Positions 6,260-22,204 of a stretch of 30,346 nt of DNA are shown one piece after another. How positions within the stretch are numbered: position 1 is the stretch's first letter; each line of letters starts with the position of its first letter. The notes beneath the pieces were generated by a model. The model saw only the letters and a list, made by a program, of their open reading frames with translations, did not search any database and was not told the DNA's origin. The stretch is from the NCBI GenBank assembly GCA_029862885.1, contig JAOTWM010000012.1:1-30346 (forward strand), written 5' to 3'. A program made the translations under genes and the position numbers. This DNA is from Gammaproteobacteria bacterium (GTDB taxonomy: Bacteria; Pseudomonadota; Gammaproteobacteria; Arenicellales; JAOTWM01).

Positions 6260-6745
6260 TTGAACTTTGGCTCAGCCTATTCGTCACCTGACGACAAAAG
6301 CTTCATCGCGAAGTATCGTGCCTGCTGCCATTGCGGCGCGGTGCGGTACGAAGTTCGCGCCGATCCGGTCGACGCCAAGATTTGTCATTGTAGCGATTGC
6401 CAGATATTGCACGGCGCGCCCATGCAGTGGGCCGCAATTTTCCACAAAGAGGATGTCAGGTTCGCAACTGGGGCTGAGCATTTGCGATTCTATAACAGCG
6501 TCCTCAACCGCCATGAAAGACTCGTGCCCTGTAAGGTGGCCTGCGCATTGTGCGGTACGCTAATCGCCGATGAAGGGCGAAATATGTGGCTGGCCTTTCC
6601 CACGCTTTTCGATTTCGGCGCGCCGCCACAGGTGCCCGAAGCGTTCAGGCCGACCTGTCACCTCTTCTACGGCATGCGGGTGATGGATATCGTCGATGAG
6701 TTGCCGAAATGGTCTGGCCACAAAGATAAATCGAGGCGACTTTGA
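6260..6745 (+). CDS. GFA-family (glutathione-dependent formaldehyde-activating / CENP-V-like) protein
   Basis: CHCGAVRYEV...CHCSDCQ...C zinc-binding pattern of the GFA domain. TTG start with an AAGGAG Shine-Dalgarno 9 nt upstream. Confidence 0.8.
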   Translation: MNFGSAYSSPDDKSFIAKYRACCHCGAVRYEVRADPVDAKICHCSDCQILHGAPMQWAAIFHKEDVRFATGAEHLRFYNSVLNRHERLVPCKVACALCGTLIADEGRNMWLAFPTLFDFGAPPQVPEAFRPTCHLFYGMRVMDIVDELPKWSGHKDKSRRL

Positions 6746-6814
6746 TCTTCGGTCGGAATCGTTGCGTTGTGCCTAACCGACGTGTTCTCGACTCCTCCCG
6801 CACCGCCGGGAAAA

Positions 6815-7236
6815 GGGTCAGGTCTTGCAATCAAGCACCACCGCGATACACGTGGTGCGTGAGTCGACCGTTGCGTCTTGAGTTAGCGGGTGGTCTGTGC
6901 CAAATCGGCTCCCGCTGAGATCGTCGGGAAGATTTCTATCTAAATGACGCTGATCGTATCAAGTGGTTATTGCTATCGAGTCAGGTATGCCAACGCTTCA
7001 AATGGAGATGTCACGCGTACTGCCTGATGAGTAGTCGCTAACATATGGTAGTGGAAATGGTGGAAGGTTGTTTTTCGAATGGGATGCGCCGATTGAATAG
7101 GGTGTACACGCAGTATTTTATTTTAAAGTCAATTACTCGAGCGTGAGTCGAGCGCTAAAGAAAGCGGATTTGGGTGATGGATAGGCACCGGCATTGGTTG
7201 GGTTCGACTGATATGAGTGATTGCAAGACCTGACCC
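6815..7236. repeat. 422-bp element bounded by a perfect 19-bp inverted repeat, GGGTCAGGTCTTGCAATCA (6815-6833) and TGATTGCAAGACCTGACCC (7218-7236). MITE-like, non-coding.
   Basis: The perfect inverted repeat is read directly. The element has no credible ORF. A partial third match to the IR core (AGACCTGACCC) lies at 14733-14743. Confidence 0.5.
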
Positions 7237-7289
7237 TATTTCCTTTTTTCGTTGTTCATAGTATTTTGGTTGTTCATTGAGCTGCCGAG

Positions 7290-7442
7290 TCACGGCATCG
7301 AGCCGACACAAACAGCCGTTGGCGAGAGCGGTTCGGTACATATAGACTACCGGAGTTGGGGACCTCGCAGATCAGCACGGCCCCCTGGGTTCTTGGTGTT
7401 GCGGTATGGGGCCCAATTCATTCACGCCAATCTCATCAAACT
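7290..7442 (+). promoter_or_regulatory. Conserved ~140-nt element, copy A, ending 25 nt before the start codon of the Met/His-rich protein gene. Candidate cis-regulatory RNA or leader.
   Basis: About 70% identical to 10726-10880 (copy B). Both share tcacggcatcg, aacagYcgttggcgagag, ggagacctcRc, cccaattNatttcacgccaa. The terminal ttggcg/cgccaa can pair. Confidence 0.5.
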
Positions 7443-7454
7443 GGAGAAACAACC

Positions 7455-7871
7455 ATGAAAAAGATATATATATTAATCGTAACCGCATTTACGTTCGTAA
7501 TTGCATCTTCCGGATATACAGCTAATACCGAAGAGGAGGTATCGATGGACTCCTCATCGACTATGGAGATGAGCGAAGATATGTCGGGAATGATGGGCGG
7601 GATGCATCATAAAGGGGTGGAGCATCGGGGCATGATGGGTCATCACATGATGCATTCTGGCGTATCACCGGTAACCATCATGGTTCAACCCGGAATGATG
7701 CCGATGATGGGTCATGGCATGATGCACCGCGGAGAGAAGGGTGGTCATAAAGGGGGTGAAATGGGTCGGGGAAAAATGATGAAAGAACACATGGAACGCA
7801 TGGAGCAGCGGCTGAAAAATATCGAGGCATTGCTCAGTGAACTGGTAGAGCTGCAAAAAAAAGGCGAGTAG
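7455..7871 (+). CDS. Secreted Met/His-rich protein (PcoE/SilE-like composition) with a C-terminal coiled coil. Putative periplasmic Cu(I)/Ag(I)-binding protein.
   Basis: GGAGAAA Shine-Dalgarno 5 nt before the ATG. Signal peptide MKKIYILIVTAFTFVIASSGYTA. Mature part is dense in MxxM, HxxM and MMGHH motifs. The ORF tracker's upstream extension to 7356 only translates element A. Confidence 0.75.
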   Translation: MKKIYILIVTAFTFVIASSGYTANTEEEVSMDSSSTMEMSEDMSGMMGGMHHKGVEHRGMMGHHMMHSGVSPVTIMVQPGMMPMMGHGMMHRGEKGGHKGGEMGRGKMMKEHMERMEQRLKNIEALLSELVELQKKGE

Positions 7872-8232
7872 CCAACAGACAAGCATAAGCGGGTTTCGTT
7901 TTTGGAAGGGGCAAAACTACGATATGGGTTTTCCATAGCGTATCCGAAACTGCAAAAGGGTTTCGGCTTTAACCGAGCTGTTTATTCGGGTTTGAATCCA
8001 TGTCAGTGCTTTGGCCTTAATTTGTCAAGGTCTGAATCTGATCTTTCGATTCCGTTCGTTCAGTGCGATCTCATCTGATAGTTTGGGAAAGCGGCCATGC
8101 AACTGGTCGACCTATACGGCTGCAACTTGCCCGGAGCGGTCATTCGAGAAGATTCACTGGAGGGCGGTTCTCGGCACTTTTCGGAGGCTGGCTAGATTTG
8201 ATTGTTGGTTTCATTCGAGCGAACATCCGCTC

Positions 8233-9555
8233 ATGACTCCCGAGACTCATTTCGCTGAAAACGATGGCGTCAGCATCGCGTATCAAGTTTTCGGTGACGG
8301 CTCACAGGACCTGATATTCATACCGGGATGGTTATCGAATCTTGACATATTGTGGGAAGAGCCGAGGGTGGCTCGTTTCCTTCTGTCACTGGCGCGAATT
8401 TTTAGGGTTACTGTTATTGATAGACGCGGAACTGGGCTTTCCGATCGTGTCGCGCCCCCGACTCTAGAAGTTCAGATGGGCGATGTGACGGCGGTGATGG
8501 ATGCCGCAGGTTCCGAACGCGCAGCATTTCTCGGTAATTCCGAAGGCGGGAGTATGTGTGCGTTGTTCGCGGCGACCCATCCGGATCGAACAACGGCTCT
8601 AATTACGGTTGGTGGATATGCTAAATGGATAAAGTCTGACGATTATCCGTATGGAACGAAACCGAGTGAAGCTGAGCAGTGGTTTGAACAAGTTGAAAAC
8701 GAGTGGGGTGGTCCCATCGCAATCGACTTTATCTCACCGAGTTTGGCAAACGATGAAAAACACCGACACTGGTTGGCTAAATTTTACCGATCGAGTGCAA
8801 GCAAGGCGAACGCCATTGCAATGCTAAGAATGGGTGCGGATATTGACCTTCGAGCAATATTGCCGACCATCAATGTTCCAAGCTTGGTGCTTCAAGCCAA
8901 AGCCGACCTTACCAACTCATTGGATTCGGGTCGCGACCTCGCAAGCCGAATCCCAAATGCGAAACTTGTCGAAATGGAATGCAGAGATCACGTGCTATGG
9001 GGGGACTGCAGTGAAGTGATTATTGGTGAGATACAGAACTTTCTCGGCGAAAAACAGACGATTTCGGTCACTGATCGAGCATTAGCCACCGTATTGTTCA
9101 CTGACATAGTCGATTCAACACAACTTGCGAACGATTTGGGCGATGAAAAATGGAGCGATCTACTTGAGGGACATAATGAAGCGGTCAGAAGGCAGCTTGA
9201 AATATTCCGTGGCAACGAGGTAAAGACTACCGGTGACGGCTTTCATGCAACATTTGACGGGCCCGCTCGAGCAATCCAATGTGCAGCCTCGATACGAGAA
9301 GCGACACGTCAATTAGGTTTAAGTCTCCGAATTGGCATACATACTGGAGAATGTGAGATTCGTGGAGAATCACTTGAGGGGGTGGCGATTCACTTGGCGG
9401 CACGTGTATCAGGGATGGCTTCTGCCGGGGAAATTGTTGTGTCAAGAACAGTTAAGGACCTTGTTGCTGGGTCAGGAATTGAGTTTGAAGACTTTGGTGT
9501 TCATGCCCTTAAGGGAATCTCTGGTGAACAACAACTATTCAAGGTGGTGGCGTAG
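8233..9555 (+). CDS. Alpha/beta-hydrolase-fold domain fused to a class III adenylate/guanylate cyclase catalytic domain (LipJ/Rv1900c-type architecture).
   Basis: N-terminal half resembles alpha/beta hydrolases. C-terminal VLFTDIVDSTQLANDLGD...TTGDGFHATF...RIGIHTGE are cyclase CHD motifs. The start codon is uncertain; the frame is open back to 8011. Confidence 0.75.
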   Translation: MTPETHFAENDGVSIAYQVFGDGSQDLIFIPGWLSNLDILWEEPRVARFLLSLARIFRVTVIDRRGTGLSDRVAPPTLEVQMGDVTAVMDAAGSERAAFLGNSEGGSMCALFAATHPDRTTALITVGGYAKWIKSDDYPYGTKPSEAEQWFEQVENEWGGPIAIDFISPSLANDEKHRHWLAKFYRSSASKANAIAMLRMGADIDLRAILPTINVPSLVLQAKADLTNSLDSGRDLASRIPNAKLVEMECRDHVLWGDCSEVIIGEIQNFLGEKQTISVTDRALATVLFTDIVDSTQLANDLGDEKWSDLLEGHNEAVRRQLEIFRGNEVKTTGDGFHATFDGPARAIQCAASIREATRQLGLSLRIGIHTGECEIRGESLEGVAIHLAARVSGMASAGEIVVSRTVKDLVAGSGIEFEDFGVHALKGISGEQQLFKVVA

Positions 9556-9639
9556 TCCTCTATCGCAGAGATATGTCTGCTATTCCGACTCCGGGACTTA
9601 CTGAATTCACGTTGCGGTGCTAGATACACATACGCGACA

Positions 9640-10320
9640 ATGGCAACAATAAGACCCATGATCAAGGTTATCACCAACAAATACGCGTCCTCACCCTACA
9701 GTCGGAAAGGCATCATTGTGCTGGAGGAGAAGGGCCTACCCTATGAGCAGGAAAACATCGACCCGGATTTCCTGCCGGACGGGTTCGAGTCGATGAACCC
9801 CAACCTGCGGGCGTCCTTGTTGATCGATCAGGGCCAGATGATATTTGAGTCGGACAACATCGTAGACTATCTCTTGCGGACGTATCCGGGGGAGCGGTCA
9901 GCGGATGCGCCGGACCCGCCCCTGACCGAAACCATGACACGCCCGGATCACCACATCCACGATTCTATGATCCTGGTTACGATTGAAACTGTCCTGAATA
10001 GCGCGAATAACATATCATTTTTTGCCACTGGCGGAATCGACCCCGCGAAGATCGAGCCCTATGGGTGGATATGGGAACGGGACAAGGTCCGCATCGATTC
10101 CTGCATGACTTGGCTGGACCAGCCAGCAATACCCGAGGGATTTGCTCCTGGAGTTTTTTCCATCATGGATCTAAAAATGATGTGCGCGTTCCGGTGTTTA
10201 ACCCGATGCGCGAATGATGACTGGAACCCCGACTGGAGCAAATATCGAAATCTCGATTCGATTTATGCGTTTTATCGGGACCGACCCTCCATTGTGAAAA
10301 CTGACCCTGGGCTAGGATAG
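9640..10320 (+). CDS. GST N-terminal-domain (thioredoxin-like) family protein
   Basis: SPYSRKG...NPNLRASLLIDQGQMIFESDNIVDYL fits the GST_N fold. The C-terminal half is atypical. An alternative start lies at 9658. Confidence 0.6.
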   Translation: MATIRPMIKVITNKYASSPYSRKGIIVLEEKGLPYEQENIDPDFLPDGFESMNPNLRASLLIDQGQMIFESDNIVDYLLRTYPGERSADAPDPPLTETMTRPDHHIHDSMILVTIETVLNSANNISFFATGGIDPAKIEPYGWIWERDKVRIDSCMTWLDQPAIPEGFAPGVFSIMDLKMMCAFRCLTRCANDDWNPDWSKYRNLDSIYAFYRDRPSIVKTDPGLG

Positions 10321-10422
10321 TTCTGCCAGAGGGTGCGGCGGTAGTTATCGGAACACGGACATCAAGCGACTTTGGCGGGAAATGGCGATTTAAAAACCAG
10401 GGCCAATGTCCGCAACGAGTAG

Positions 10423-10589
10423 AGACTGTGTGAAAACACAAAAAATAATGAGGCTGTTGGGACAGTGCTGCTTAATCTTCATCCGCGGAGACAACTTTTG
10501 CAGTTGAAGCTCCACTTATAACGTTAGAATTTAACAAGCGTGATCGTTATCCCCACCAACAATTTTGATCCTGCGTTTTCACACAGTCT
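10423..10589. mobile_element. MITE-like element copy 1 (167 bp) with terminal inverted repeat AGACTGTGTGAAAAC and a possible GAGTA target-site duplication.
   Basis: IRs at 10423-10437 and 10575-10589. A diverged second copy with the same IRs lies at 14274-14439. Confidence 0.6.
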
Positions 10590-10725
10590 GAGTATGAAGC
10601 GGAAGTTTTCCATGATAACTCAATTGGCCGCTTTTGGGGTTTTGAGACCCTCGCGAAGGTCAAAGTTAGGGTGCTATCGGGTGCCATGCTTCGTCAGAAA
10701 ACTCCGGGGTTTCGCGCGGTGGGAA

Positions 10726-10880
10726 TCACGGCATCGGTCTGAAAAAACAGTCGTTGGCGAGAGGGGTTGGCCATATATAGGTTATAAGATCTGGAGACCT
10801 CACGGATCGACGCAACCCCCCCCCCGGTCGCAGTGCTGTAGCATGGGACCCAATTGTATTTACGCCAAGCTCAAGAACGC
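10726..10880 (+). promoter_or_regulatory. Conserved ~140-nt element, copy B. It is an orphan; no + strand gene follows within 500 bp.
   Basis: Aligns with copy A (7290-7442) over its whole length, including about 12 nt beyond the cgccaa stem. Confidence 0.45.
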
Positions 10881-11403
10881 AGAAGCAGCGACGCAGCTCA
10901 AATTAGGCCGAACTCCGCCTGTCGCGACATCGCTTTTCTAGCCCGAATAATTCATGAAAGCATCTGATTTCAGGGGAAATCGGGCCAAGTAGTCGGTGCG
11001 ATCGTTTGTCCGATTTATAGCCGCAGCTATGGATCAAGGGGGATCGTGCCAAATATGACGCCCGATTTTTCTGAGTCCGAACAGGACATACCATATGCAG
11101 GCCCCGTGTCTTAACACACACGGTAACCGGTTCAAATATTGAAAAGAGTCCTGGTCCATCGTCGGCCTTGGTGAAATATCCGGGCTAGTCAACATATCAT
11201 TGCCGGGAATTTGATTTACTTTAATTGTACGTGTCGCGAACGGGACATTGAGGTCATGCAGTGCCGGACGCTCAGGTTGCCGAACCACGGTTCCAGCAAT
11301 ACCGCTTGCGTTAAGAAATGGAACAAATCACCATTAATACGATCTCATGCATAGAGTTCATACGAAGTATCATTCCACGGCTTAACGATCAGAAAACACG
11401 ACC

Positions 11404-12057
11404 ATGACCAAATCAACAATCAACCGGTTGCGCAGGAAACTGTTGACCCTAGTCGGCATAGTGGGTGTAGCCCCCCATTTGGCGTGGGCTGAAACACTGT
11501 TGCCGACACCACGACAATCGACTGGCCCTTTCTACCCCGAGCAACTGCCGTTGGACGACGACAACGACCTCACGCGAGTGGCAGGTCGAAACGGTTTGGC
11601 GAAGGGACAGAATACGGACCTGTCAGGTCGGATAGTAGACACAAACGGGCACCCCGTGACCGGCGTACGCATCGAAATATGGCAGTGCGATGCCAACGGT
11701 CGCTACCACCACCCGCGCGACAATCGGCAAGTGGTCCTGGATGACAATTTCCAAGGGCACGGCCACACCATCACCGACGCCGAAGGAAACTACCGATTCC
11801 GCACCATCCTGCCGGTTCAGTACCCTGGCCGCACGCCCCACATACACACAGCAGTGTTTCCGCTGGGGCATGACCCCTTAGTTACGCAGATCTACATCAA
11901 AGACGAACCGCGCAACGCCCAGGATTTTCTGTTCAATAGAATCCCCGTGGAGCGACGGCCGCTGGTCATGGCCGAATTTAAACCTACTAGCGGTGGGGAT
12001 ACTGAGTTCGTTGCCCATTTCAACCTGGTGATCGGTGCCACTCCGCAGCAGGCGTAA
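11404..12057 (+). CDS. Intradiol ring-cleavage dioxygenase-family protein with an N-terminal Tat/Sec-type signal
   Basis: RLRRKLLTLVGIVGV...AWA signal. Core GRIVD..G.PV.G..IEIWQCDA.GRY...YRFRTI.P..YPGR..HIH motifs, including the Tyr/His iron ligands. Confidence 0.75.
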   Translation: MTKSTINRLRRKLLTLVGIVGVAPHLAWAETLLPTPRQSTGPFYPEQLPLDDDNDLTRVAGRNGLAKGQNTDLSGRIVDTNGHPVTGVRIEIWQCDANGRYHHPRDNRQVVLDDNFQGHGHTITDAEGNYRFRTILPVQYPGRTPHIHTAVFPLGHDPLVTQIYIKDEPRNAQDFLFNRIPVERRPLVMAEFKPTSGGDTEFVAHFNLVIGATPQQA

Positions 12058-12292
12058 TCGTAATCTGGATCAGACTTCCGCTTTACCGTTAAAAGCAGCC
12101 GCTCCTCGGTTCTCTATATACAAGAGTCGCGAGGGGCCGCGTTCGACCCCAAGCAGTCATCTATCGTTTTACGATCTTAGTCCGTTCATTGCCCTGACCT
12201 GCCGTTCAGATAATCTCCCACGAGGGCAGTTCTCGGCCACAAGCGGACGTCGAATTGATTATGATATTCAGGACCGGCTATTCCTGCCGAGC

Positions 12293-14204: not shown

Positions 14205-14273
14205 AATCCAATTTTCATCCCGCATGCATCTTGCTGTAAAGCGAGAAATCGGGTGCGGTAAACGTCCGCTCTG

Positions 14274-14439
14274 GGTCCAGACTGTGTGAAAACTCAGAAT
14301 TGGAAAAAACATTTGGGACAGCACAACAATATTAGTCATTAACCCTTTGGTTCTAGTTTCTCTGCCCCACAACTGCCTTATATAACTCGAAAAATGGGAT
14401 AGCGTGACATCATAAATAGTTTTCACACAGCCTGGGTCG
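14274..14439. mobile_element. MITE-like element copy 2 (about 166 bp), same IR family as 10423-10589. It is inserted 70 bp upstream of the ECF sigma factor start.
   Basis: IRs cagactgtgtgaaaac (14278-14293) and gttttcacacagcctg (14420-14435). Internal blocks ttgggacag and cttata.aac...agcgtga are shared with copy 1. Confidence 0.6.
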
Positions 14440-14825
14440 GTAGCCGCCTTGTACCACAGTGGCATGAATGACGGCTTCGAGTATATTGCAGCCCGTTACA
14501 ATCTCACAGCGAATGACTGCTAAGGAAAAAGAAGACGATCACGCGTTATGAAAAAAGGCCCGCTTCTTGCCCATAGCGGAAGAAACGCTGCGGTGCGGCG
14601 AACGGCTCTTCTCGGCTGCGGTTTCAACCGGTCGATGCAACACATTGGTTAAATTGTTCGCATTGGAGAAGCAGACATTTTGAGGGCGCATGAATTTGCC
14701 TCCCTGATGCTAACCGGGCATTTCTAAATTCCAGACCTGACCCATTAAGCCACAATCACATTAAGCTGAACGAAATCCTTTTCCTTACCCGTTGTGAATA
14801 AAGCGAGTTATTTGGAGTTCTTTGA

Positions 14826-15134: not shown

Positions 15135-15529
15135 AGTGAGTACTCCAAATTTAGTAGCCGTAAGTGAGTACGTATACTGGGTTTACGAGCTGAAAATAAA
15201 GGTAGCCAGCGCCTTTAGTAGGTTAAATTTCAACGTCTACCGCTTGTATTGTACCATCTAAGCCGACGGACCGATTTCTAGACAATCGGTCTGTGATGGT
15301 AAATTGAGCACTCGAATGAGTACTATTTGCCCTCTATTGTTATTGGAGCAAGTTCACAGGAGGGCAGTTCTCGGCCATGTCCAGACATTCGCCACCAGTG
15401 ATATAGCTATTCCTTCGCTGCCCACAATTTTTCCGTCTGGCTAAGATTCTTGGATAAAACATGAACGCGATAGCAGTGACTCTGACTTTGTTTCTTTGGG
15501 TTATCACATTGCCTTGCTATGCGGGCGCC

Positions 15530-16690: not shown

Positions 16691-16978
16691 CTTGAACCAG
16701 GAGCACGACTTTACCGTCCAAATCCAATGACATACATAGTTATAGAATTGACCGCTGTGAGTATACAGCGGAAGTATACAAAGTTATCAGAAATGGCCGC
16801 TTTTGAGGTTATTGGAAACTTGTTTGTTGTCTGGTCAATTTAGAACATAACTTTTGTTCTGCTAGATCAAGTTACAACCTTTACACTTAATTTGCCTAAA
16901 TTCGTAGCATCTCTTAATGCATGCCGTACTTTCAACTAGTGGCTGTACGTTCCTTTATCCGCTACGTCGAGAGCTTGT

Positions 16979-22130: not shown

Positions 22131-22204
22131 AGCGAGATAGCTCAGCTAGGTAGAGCAACCGACTCATAATCGGTCCGTCGCAGGTTCAACTCCTGCTCTC
22201 AATT
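22131..22204 (+). tRNA. tRNA-Met(CAT)-like sequence. The D, anticodon and T arms are canonical, but the 3' acceptor strand pairs at only 5 of 7 positions. Probable pseudo-tRNA or att-site-modified tRNA.
   Basis: TAGCTCAGCTAGGTAGAGC D-arm. Anticodon stem ACCGA/TCGGT with loop CTCATAA. T-arm GCAGG TTCAACT CCTGC. Acceptor 5' AGCGAGA versus 3' TCTCAAT, with no encoded CCA. Confidence 0.55.

Follow-up and report, generated by a model that had tools for sequence, protein, structure and literature searches.

An upstream element duplicated beside a Met/His-rich protein gene in an Arenicellales contig: a probable 5' flank with one orphaned copy

Why would a non-coding element occur twice in one accessory region, once directly upstream of a gene for a secreted, Met/His-rich protein and once with no gene behind it? 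The question is raised by a stretch of 30,346 nt from a gammaproteobacterial genome of the Arenicellales (contig JAOTWM010000012.1; this whole stretch is referred to as the window). An earlier note on this DNA had read the two copies, here A and B, as a candidate novel cis-regulatory RNA or as a duplicated promoter or operator module. Comparison with a third copy (C), on contig L133 from another metagenome, points to a different answer. The element is probably the lineage-specific 5' flank of the Met/His-rich gene; A and B would descend from a duplicated unit of flank plus gene, of which B is the orphaned relic. A blocky, 70%-identical repeat 5' of an interesting gene had resembled a new riboswitch candidate, and one extra homolog together with a synonymous-site benchmark turns it into what appears to be ordinary decay of duplicated non-coding DNA, a correction rather than a discovery.

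Two copies in the window and a third in another metagenome

The features on which the comparison is built are the following.

7287-7435, + strand: copy A (the X-type leader), directly 5' of the Met/His-rich gene; aligns with 10723-10873
7436-7454, + strand: native ribosome-binding segment AAACTGGAGAAACAACC, common to all orthologs whatever their leader type (alignment A5)
7455-7871, + strand: gene for a secreted Met/His-rich protein of 138 aa; its translation has a signal peptide, a Met/His-rich middle and a C-terminal helical tail
7872-7936, + strand: conserved 3' flank of the Met/His-rich gene, ~89% identical to L133 (L133:3263-3327)
10641-10722, + strand: 5' extension of copy B, of which 10641-10684 is common to L133 and not to copy A
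10723-10873, + strand: copy B, an orphan with no gene downstream (blastn and MAFFT alignment to A)
10874-10897, + strand: candidate decayed ribosome-binding site and start codon after B, with ACG where A and C have ATG (alignment A7)

Copies A and B are 71% identical over 152 aligned columns, with a few indels of 1-2 nt (MAFFT), bearing out the full-length repeat of about 70% identity that the earlier note described. The match has a blastn E value of 9e-20 within the window, its local alignment score lies 30 standard deviations above shuffled sequences, and it was also recovered as repeat families D2 and D15. A and B are the only copies in the 30-kb window, where a profile of the two (nhmmer --max) found no third. 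Significant similarity stops at 7435, which is 19 nt before the ATG at 7455. The shared blocks listed in the earlier note are all present (TCACGGCATCG, AACAGYCGTTGGCGAGAG, ATATAG, GGRGACCTCRCRGATC, a C tract, CCCAATT, ACGCCAA, and CTCA), and their blockiness is not above chance. At ~70% identity over 153 columns, the longest run of matches is 12 (p = 0.45 against random mismatch placement), and both the number of runs (p = 0.19) and the sum of squared run lengths (p = 0.25) fall within random placement. Substitutions between the two copies comprise 29 transitions and 12 transversions and show no 3-base periodicity. Copy B contains a C10 homopolymer at 10816-10825, which is C5 in copies A and C. 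Copy B is followed by no gene, as had been stated before: between 10880 and 11404 there is no open reading frame (ORF) with a family match.

Copy C occupies L133:2754-2893 (nhmmer E 8e-28) and leads straight into the closest ortholog that the Met/His-rich gene has; all comparisons of the element rest on three copies from two genomes. The closest homolog, P0035, had been truncated by the gene caller. With its true start re-placed at L133:2888, the reading frame is intact and encodes 124 aa, which are 82% identical to the window protein and include a 14-residue deletion. From 7321 on, copy A aligns with L133:2754 onward as a single 617-column match that runs through the gene. The segment L133:2708-2751 matches window positions 10641-10684 at 80% identity (blastn), and C therefore shares the farther 5' flank of B, which in turn means that B reaches farther left than the earlier note had recognized. 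Since C both precedes an intact ortholog and carries this flank, the B-type flank is a true leader of a Met/His-rich gene in another genome; a homolog of the orphaned 5' flank on an intact gene elsewhere is thus found in L133.

The three copies differ by large rearrangements. Copy A has no counterpart of 10641-10722 of B, and from copy C 71 nt are missing, among them the TCACGGCATCG and AACAGYCGTT blocks. Because C is linked to a gene without these, a gene-linked copy can dispense with the 5' blocks common to A and B. Over the 113 nt shared by all three, pairwise identity is 69% for A-B, 69% for A-C, and 77% for B-C, and 67 of 116 alignment columns are invariant.

Searches for further copies were made in several collections. 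A scan of genome contigs with ACAGNCGTTGGCGAGAG, whose 16 specified bases are too short to be discriminating, gave at least 118 matches, none of those with extended similarity to the element (nhmmer), and carries no information on copy number. The corresponding scan of metagenome contigs with GTTGGCGAGAGNGGTTNNNNNNATATAG gave two matches, neither with extended similarity; this is a weak negative, as the pattern would miss copy C and the collection scanned did not return the source contig either. Two scans of viral contigs with blocks invariant in A, B, and C yielded 0 matches, and plasmids had no match to the element (blastn, distant setting).

Replaced leaders and the rate of change

The Met/His-rich protein has no Pfam match and only sub-threshold NCBIfam matches. 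Its 52 homologs occur in metagenome-assembled genomes named Gammaproteobacteria or Arenicellales. DNA was retrieved for six orthologs besides the one on L133 (L131, L127, L132, L121, L123, and L126, with 81, 78, 78, 70, 68, and 55% protein identity, respectively), and the element was not found upstream of any of them (nhmmer). Instead, L131, L127, L132, and L123 share a different leader of ~170 nt (type 2; z = 34 for L123 against L127), with the form TTTTAYGCAATC...GTAAGYCAACGTAAGKCGCAATGTTGYGCTAAACATTTACGG...GTACAACTTG upstream of the orthologs in L123/L124/L125, L127, L131, and L132. This type-2 leader has no Rfam match in L127 and L131, the two loci searched, and its identity tracks identity at 4-fold degenerate sites of the genes (0.88 against 0.86, 0.74 against 0.77, and 0.74 against 0.65). 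L121 and L126 have yet other upstream sequences, and there the gene stands behind a small one for a SHOCT-domain protein.

When the window was searched with a profile of the type-2 leader, a single match was obtained, at 7434-7451; it corresponds to the ribosome-binding segment AAACTGGAGAAACA and taken alone is not significant (E 4.4). Similarity to the orthologs begins at 7434-7436, where the similarity of A and B ends, and this marks the breakpoint at which the X-type leader is joined to the gene unit ~20 nt before the ATG. At 4-fold sites the window gene is 0.68, 0.72, 0.68, and 0.74 identical to L131, L127, L123, and L133, respectively, and the region upstream of it is only 42-49% identical to that of L131, L127, and L123, which amounts to unalignable sequence. 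Similar distances at 4-fold sites with upstream regions that do not align mean that the leader was replaced discretely and did not drift gradually. Distant homology between the X-type and type-2 leaders was considered and rejected, as pairwise z is at most 2.5 and profile searches in both directions match only the ribosome-binding segment. Across the orthologs compared, upstream sequence differs discretely between lineages, and the X-type flank is shared by the window lineage and its closest relative, L133.

What stays constant around these junctions is compact. The first ~55 nt of the 3' flank (CCAACAGACAAGCATAAGCGGGTTTCGTTTTTGGAAGGGGCAAAACTAC...) are also kept in L131, L127, and L123 despite their different 5' leaders; the consensus fold of the flank at 7872-7936 is not stable (-3.4 kcal/mol), and the flank contains no T run of the kind seen at terminators. 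By this comparison, the conserved gene unit extends from ~20 nt before the ATG to ~55 nt past the stop codon. This uncharacterized periplasmic family behaves as a compact unit, from ribosome-binding site to stop plus 55 nt, with several replacements of the sequence upstream of it. The pattern resembles promoter or leader replacement by rearrangement, in which relatives retain the coding region, the ribosome-binding site, and the 3' flank. Upstream of about -20 the whole sequence is swapped discretely, and the leader types seen at similar synonymous distance number at least three or four. Unlike in typical cases, no mobile-element end was found at the X-type junction and no donor of the X-type leader was traced.

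The pair of the window and L133 also supplies a benchmark for the rate at which the element changes. In the adjacent coding sequences, identity is 86% over all positions and 74% at 4-fold degenerate sites (31 of 42). Leader identity is 64-69%, below the value at those sites, so that by this measure conservation of the element does not exceed that of silent sites. In the 65 nt past the stop codon identity is ~89%, which indicates that constraint is detectable in flanking DNA where it is present; none is detectable in the element. The non-coding part conserved above the neutral rate is thus the 3' flank, not the 5' leader. Private changes number 12 in the orphan B and 11 in the gene-linked C, suggesting that loss of its gene did not speed change in B. 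In the 3' third of the element the private changes of A, B, and C are 11, 3, and 3, and in the rest of it 9, 9, and 8.

Origin of the two copies and competing explanations

The X-type flank would have been acquired through a rearrangement ~20 nt upstream of the start codon, and would comprise whatever promoter there is plus the 5' untranslated region of one sub-lineage of the Arenicellales-type Met/His-rich gene. We infer that the ancestor of the window genome and L133 had two flank-plus-gene copies. Copy A would still serve the surviving gene at 7455, and B (10641-10897) would be what remained after loss of its coding region, the orthologous B-like flank still preceding an intact gene in L133. 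The similarity of A and B would then reflect shared ancestry decaying at an approximately neutral rate, and selection for an RNA fold or for an operator would play no part in it. Any working part of A would lie within 7323-7454, the stretch that A and C, the two gene-linked copies, have in common. A weak, non-consensus promoter is the most likely candidate; it would lie around 7343-7350, the only AT-rich box, and would be followed by a 5' untranslated region of ~100 nt without structure and by the ribosome-binding site GGAG at 7447-7450.

As in an orphaned 5' flank or pseudogene remnant, one genome holds two diverged upstream copies, one gene-linked and one bare, the ortholog of the orphan's flank is still on an intact gene elsewhere, and divergence is close to the synonymous rate. 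Unlike in a typical case, no fragment of the lost coding sequence survives, and the copies differ by large deletions or truncations on their 5' side. Several points weigh against an orphaned flank. After 10873 there is neither a Met/His coding remnant nor similarity to the 3' flank (tblastn, sensitive local DNA alignment), so that the lost gene is deduced and not seen. The 20 nt that follow have 11 of 20 collinear matches, counted by eye, to the ribosome-binding and start segment of C; as a sign of a decayed start this is suggestive only. No promoter was identified, and how A drives the gene is consequently a guess. The excess likeness of B and C in the 3' third could reflect gene conversion or local constraint, and should the gene have been lost from B only recently, the equal rate of change in B is hardly informative. 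The sample itself is small, with three copies from only two genomes and 42 four-fold sites as the neutral benchmark.

The alternative that survives best is a duplicated functional promoter or operator module, both copies of which bind the same, possibly metal-responsive, regulator, with B driving a target farther along, for instance the dioxygenase-like gene at 11404 or a small RNA that has not been annotated. We consider it unlikely. The element does sit where the promoter must be, since an inverted-repeat-bounded element resembling a miniature inverted-repeat transposable element (MITE) separates the gene from the GFA gene upstream; an AT-rich box recurs in each of the three copies, over half of the columns aligned among them are invariant (the 67 of 116 given above), and one ortholog has CusF, multicopper-oxidase, and cupredoxin genes around it. 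However, a promoter scan found no consensus sigma-70 promoter in A, B, or C (activator-dependent and alternative-sigma types fall outside such a scan), and inspection by eye found no fit to sigma-54 or extracytoplasmic-function (ECF) type promoter motifs. An arrangement seen by eye, TTGGCG-N16-TATAG(A/G) in A and B, reads GGGGCG-N16-TATTTG in C, so that the candidate -35 box TTGGCG is GGGGCG in C and the -10 box is without its final T in A and B. The element is moreover not conserved above synonymous sites, C precedes an intact gene without the 5' blocks of A and B, and 520 nt, an inverted-repeat-bounded stretch among them, separate B from the next gene. Of the duplicated promoter or operator module put forward in the earlier note, the duplicated upstream flank of a gene stands, a B-like copy preceding the L133 ortholog; the module itself finds neither operator-like constraint nor a consensus sigma-70 promoter.

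The element may be metal-responsive, the basis for this being only the gene product and the copper genes beside the L123 ortholog. In L123:8527-12423 the Met/His-rich ortholog adjoins cytochrome c genes and genes for a CusF-domain protein, a multicopper oxidase, and a cupredoxin; apart from these neighbors, nothing in the gene context supports a copper-related role for the family.

A further alternative takes the element for a dispersed repeat or recombination site, either like MITEs and ERIC sequences or like att/attC sites, that moves or mobilizes the three genes between A and B. The inverted-repeat-bounded elements that bear on it are listed here.

6808-7243, no strand assigned: MITE-like element bounded by inverted repeat I5 (26-nt arms, 92% complementary), upstream of A and outside the repeat
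10423-10589, no strand assigned: MITE-like element upstream of B, with 18-nt arms (94%); inverted repeats I20, I8, and I2, direct repeats D7 and D12
10938-11188, no strand assigned: further inverted-repeat-bounded stretch in the gene-less gap after B (24-nt arms, 79% complementary)

As direct repeats, A and B bracket three accessory genes on the same strand in a region rich in MITE-like elements and containing an IS21 element; the Met/His-rich gene unit has changed its upstream context several times; L133 looks like a tRNA-adjacent island with an integrase fragment; and JGI contig L119 ends inside copy B. This end lies 18 nt past the C10 homopolymer, however, and probably arose in assembly or sequencing. 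In two assemblies of the locus made independently, the sequence runs through copy A and breaks inside the MITE-like elements: Logan contig L120, which covers window positions 7004-10517, starts inside the 6808-7243 element, reads straight through A, and ends inside the 10423-10589 element. These breaks suggest that the MITE-like elements are multi-copy in the genome. The earlier note had placed a small inverted-repeat-bounded element upstream of each copy, and both are real, ending 44 nt before A and 134 nt before B. They belong to two different families, and in L133 there is no inverted repeat upstream of copy C, so that such adjacency is not a property of the element.

Neither A nor B folds as a palindrome (z about 0), and apart from a 6-nt TTGGCG/CGCCAA pair that is offset from the ends they have no terminal inverted repeats. 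The terminal inverted repeats and many copies that characterize MITEs and dispersed repeats are thus not seen in the element, which has two copies in 30 kb. attC core sites have the form RYYYAAC ... GTTRRRY and make up an imperfect palindrome that folds as a hairpin, with intI nearby. Read from the sequence, the element has the polarity GTTGGCG ... CGCCAAT, the reverse of attC, and the window contains no integron integrase. An integron cassette array, which the small same-strand accessory genes might have suggested, was rejected on the same grounds: wrong attC polarity, no fold or hairpin, and no integrase or tyrosine recombinase in the window. The likeness to attC, ERIC, Correia, and MITE sequences is that of ~150-nt intergenic direct repeats in a same-strand array of small accessory genes, with one copy ending ~20 nt before a start codon. 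The element differs from them in having no imperfect-palindrome fold, no R''/R' cores of correct polarity, no integrase or terminal inverted repeats, and a low copy number. That the element is a dispersed repeat or a recombination site is, on this balance, highly unlikely.

We give very little weight to one more variant, which would keep the leader swap and make B a working unit. In it, the X-type flank would be a lineage-specific operator or a loosely structured RNA that rewired a probably copper-related gene, B would have been kept as a functional unit in its own right, for instance as a decoy site or to promote a transcript not yet annotated, and the constrained core would be the 3' third with high B-C identity, ATGGGACCCAWTTGTATTTACRCCAAGCTCA.

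The novel structured cis-regulatory RNA proposed in the earlier note fares worst. The Rfam search suggested there returned, at gathering thresholds and over the whole window, only a tRNA at 22131-22204 and nothing at A or B. At E values up to 10, the sole match within 6700-11200 was a chance CRISPR-DR (17 bits), and nothing was found at copy C or at the alternative leaders searched. Folding of A and B is no more stable than that of shuffled sequence on either strand, with minimum free energy z-scores against dinucleotide shuffles of -0.47 and -0.26 on the + strand and -0.21 and -0.51 on the - strand, and their two-sequence consensus folds are weak and bulged. RNAalifold gives the three copies -15.9 kcal/mol with a covariation term of +2.1, where a positive value is penalizing, and the covariation also suggested as a check is therefore not supported in this alignment of only three sequences. 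The closing helix that had been proposed from the terminal TTGGCG and CGCCAA reads GGGGCG/CACCAA in C, which breaks three of its six pairs with no compensatory change and a covariation score of 0.

With regard to Rfam cis-regulatory leaders, including the metal-sensing czcD/NiCo, yybP-ykoY, and M-box types, the element is alike only in length and in its position 5' of a metal-looking gene; it differs in matching no covariance model, in giving neither a thermodynamic nor a covariation signal, and in being neither conserved among orthologs nor constrained above the neutral rate. A riboswitch-like RNA sensing a metal or other ligand and controlling the Met/His-rich gene would fit the position of a GC-rich region of ~100-150 nt with some self-complementary segments directly 5' of the gene in two genomes, but its absence from orthologs of equal coding divergence, its near-neutral change, and the failed fold, helix, covariation, and Rfam tests leave this reading scarcely credible and already largely refuted. 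A leader peptide was also tried and rejected. The upstream ORF that would start with ATG at the conserved ATGGG, identified by eye, differs in frame between A and B/C through a 1-nt indel, and the differences between B and C there are all non-synonymous.

Other features of the region

The window as a whole is accessory in character, with four GST genes, a GFA-family gene, an ECF-type sigma factor gene, and several MITE-like elements. Other genes are an alpha/beta-hydrolase plus nucleotide-cyclase gene (8234), a deacetylase-like gene (15461), and the dioxygenase-like gene mentioned above (11404). An IS21-family element occupies 338-2909 on the minus strand, with istB at 400-1155 and istA at 1173-2747. 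Three tandem 23-nt repeats lie at 2820-2909 and a matching inverted copy at 338-366; presumably these are the multiple transposase-binding sites at the ends of IS21. A search with the IstA protein recovered this locus and no other. The element at 10423-10589 forms one MITE-like family with 14254-14458, and their termini have the form AGACTGTGTGAAAAC. The 53 nt to the right of this first family member (10589-10641) recur at 16758-16810 with 77% identity.

On L133, copy C seems to lie in a tRNA-adjacent island, where L133:160-873 holds a tRNA (160-232) followed by a truncated tyrosine-recombinase ORF of 189 aa on the minus strand. Between the recombinase fragment and the Met/His-rich gene, L133 carries glyoxalase-family and flavodoxin-like genes.

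A 17-nt motif, GGAGGGCRGTTCTCGGC, occurs three times on the + strand of the window (8159-8175, 12221-12237, and 15359-15375), with 0 expected from 100 shuffles. Its copies lie within ~70-90 nt of weaker similarity that includes an invariant TTGCCC ~30 nt upstream, and two of them precede start codons, that of the hydrolase-cyclase gene (8234) by 75 nt and that of the deacetylase-like gene (15461) by 102 nt. The motif may be a shared regulatory site or a small repeat.

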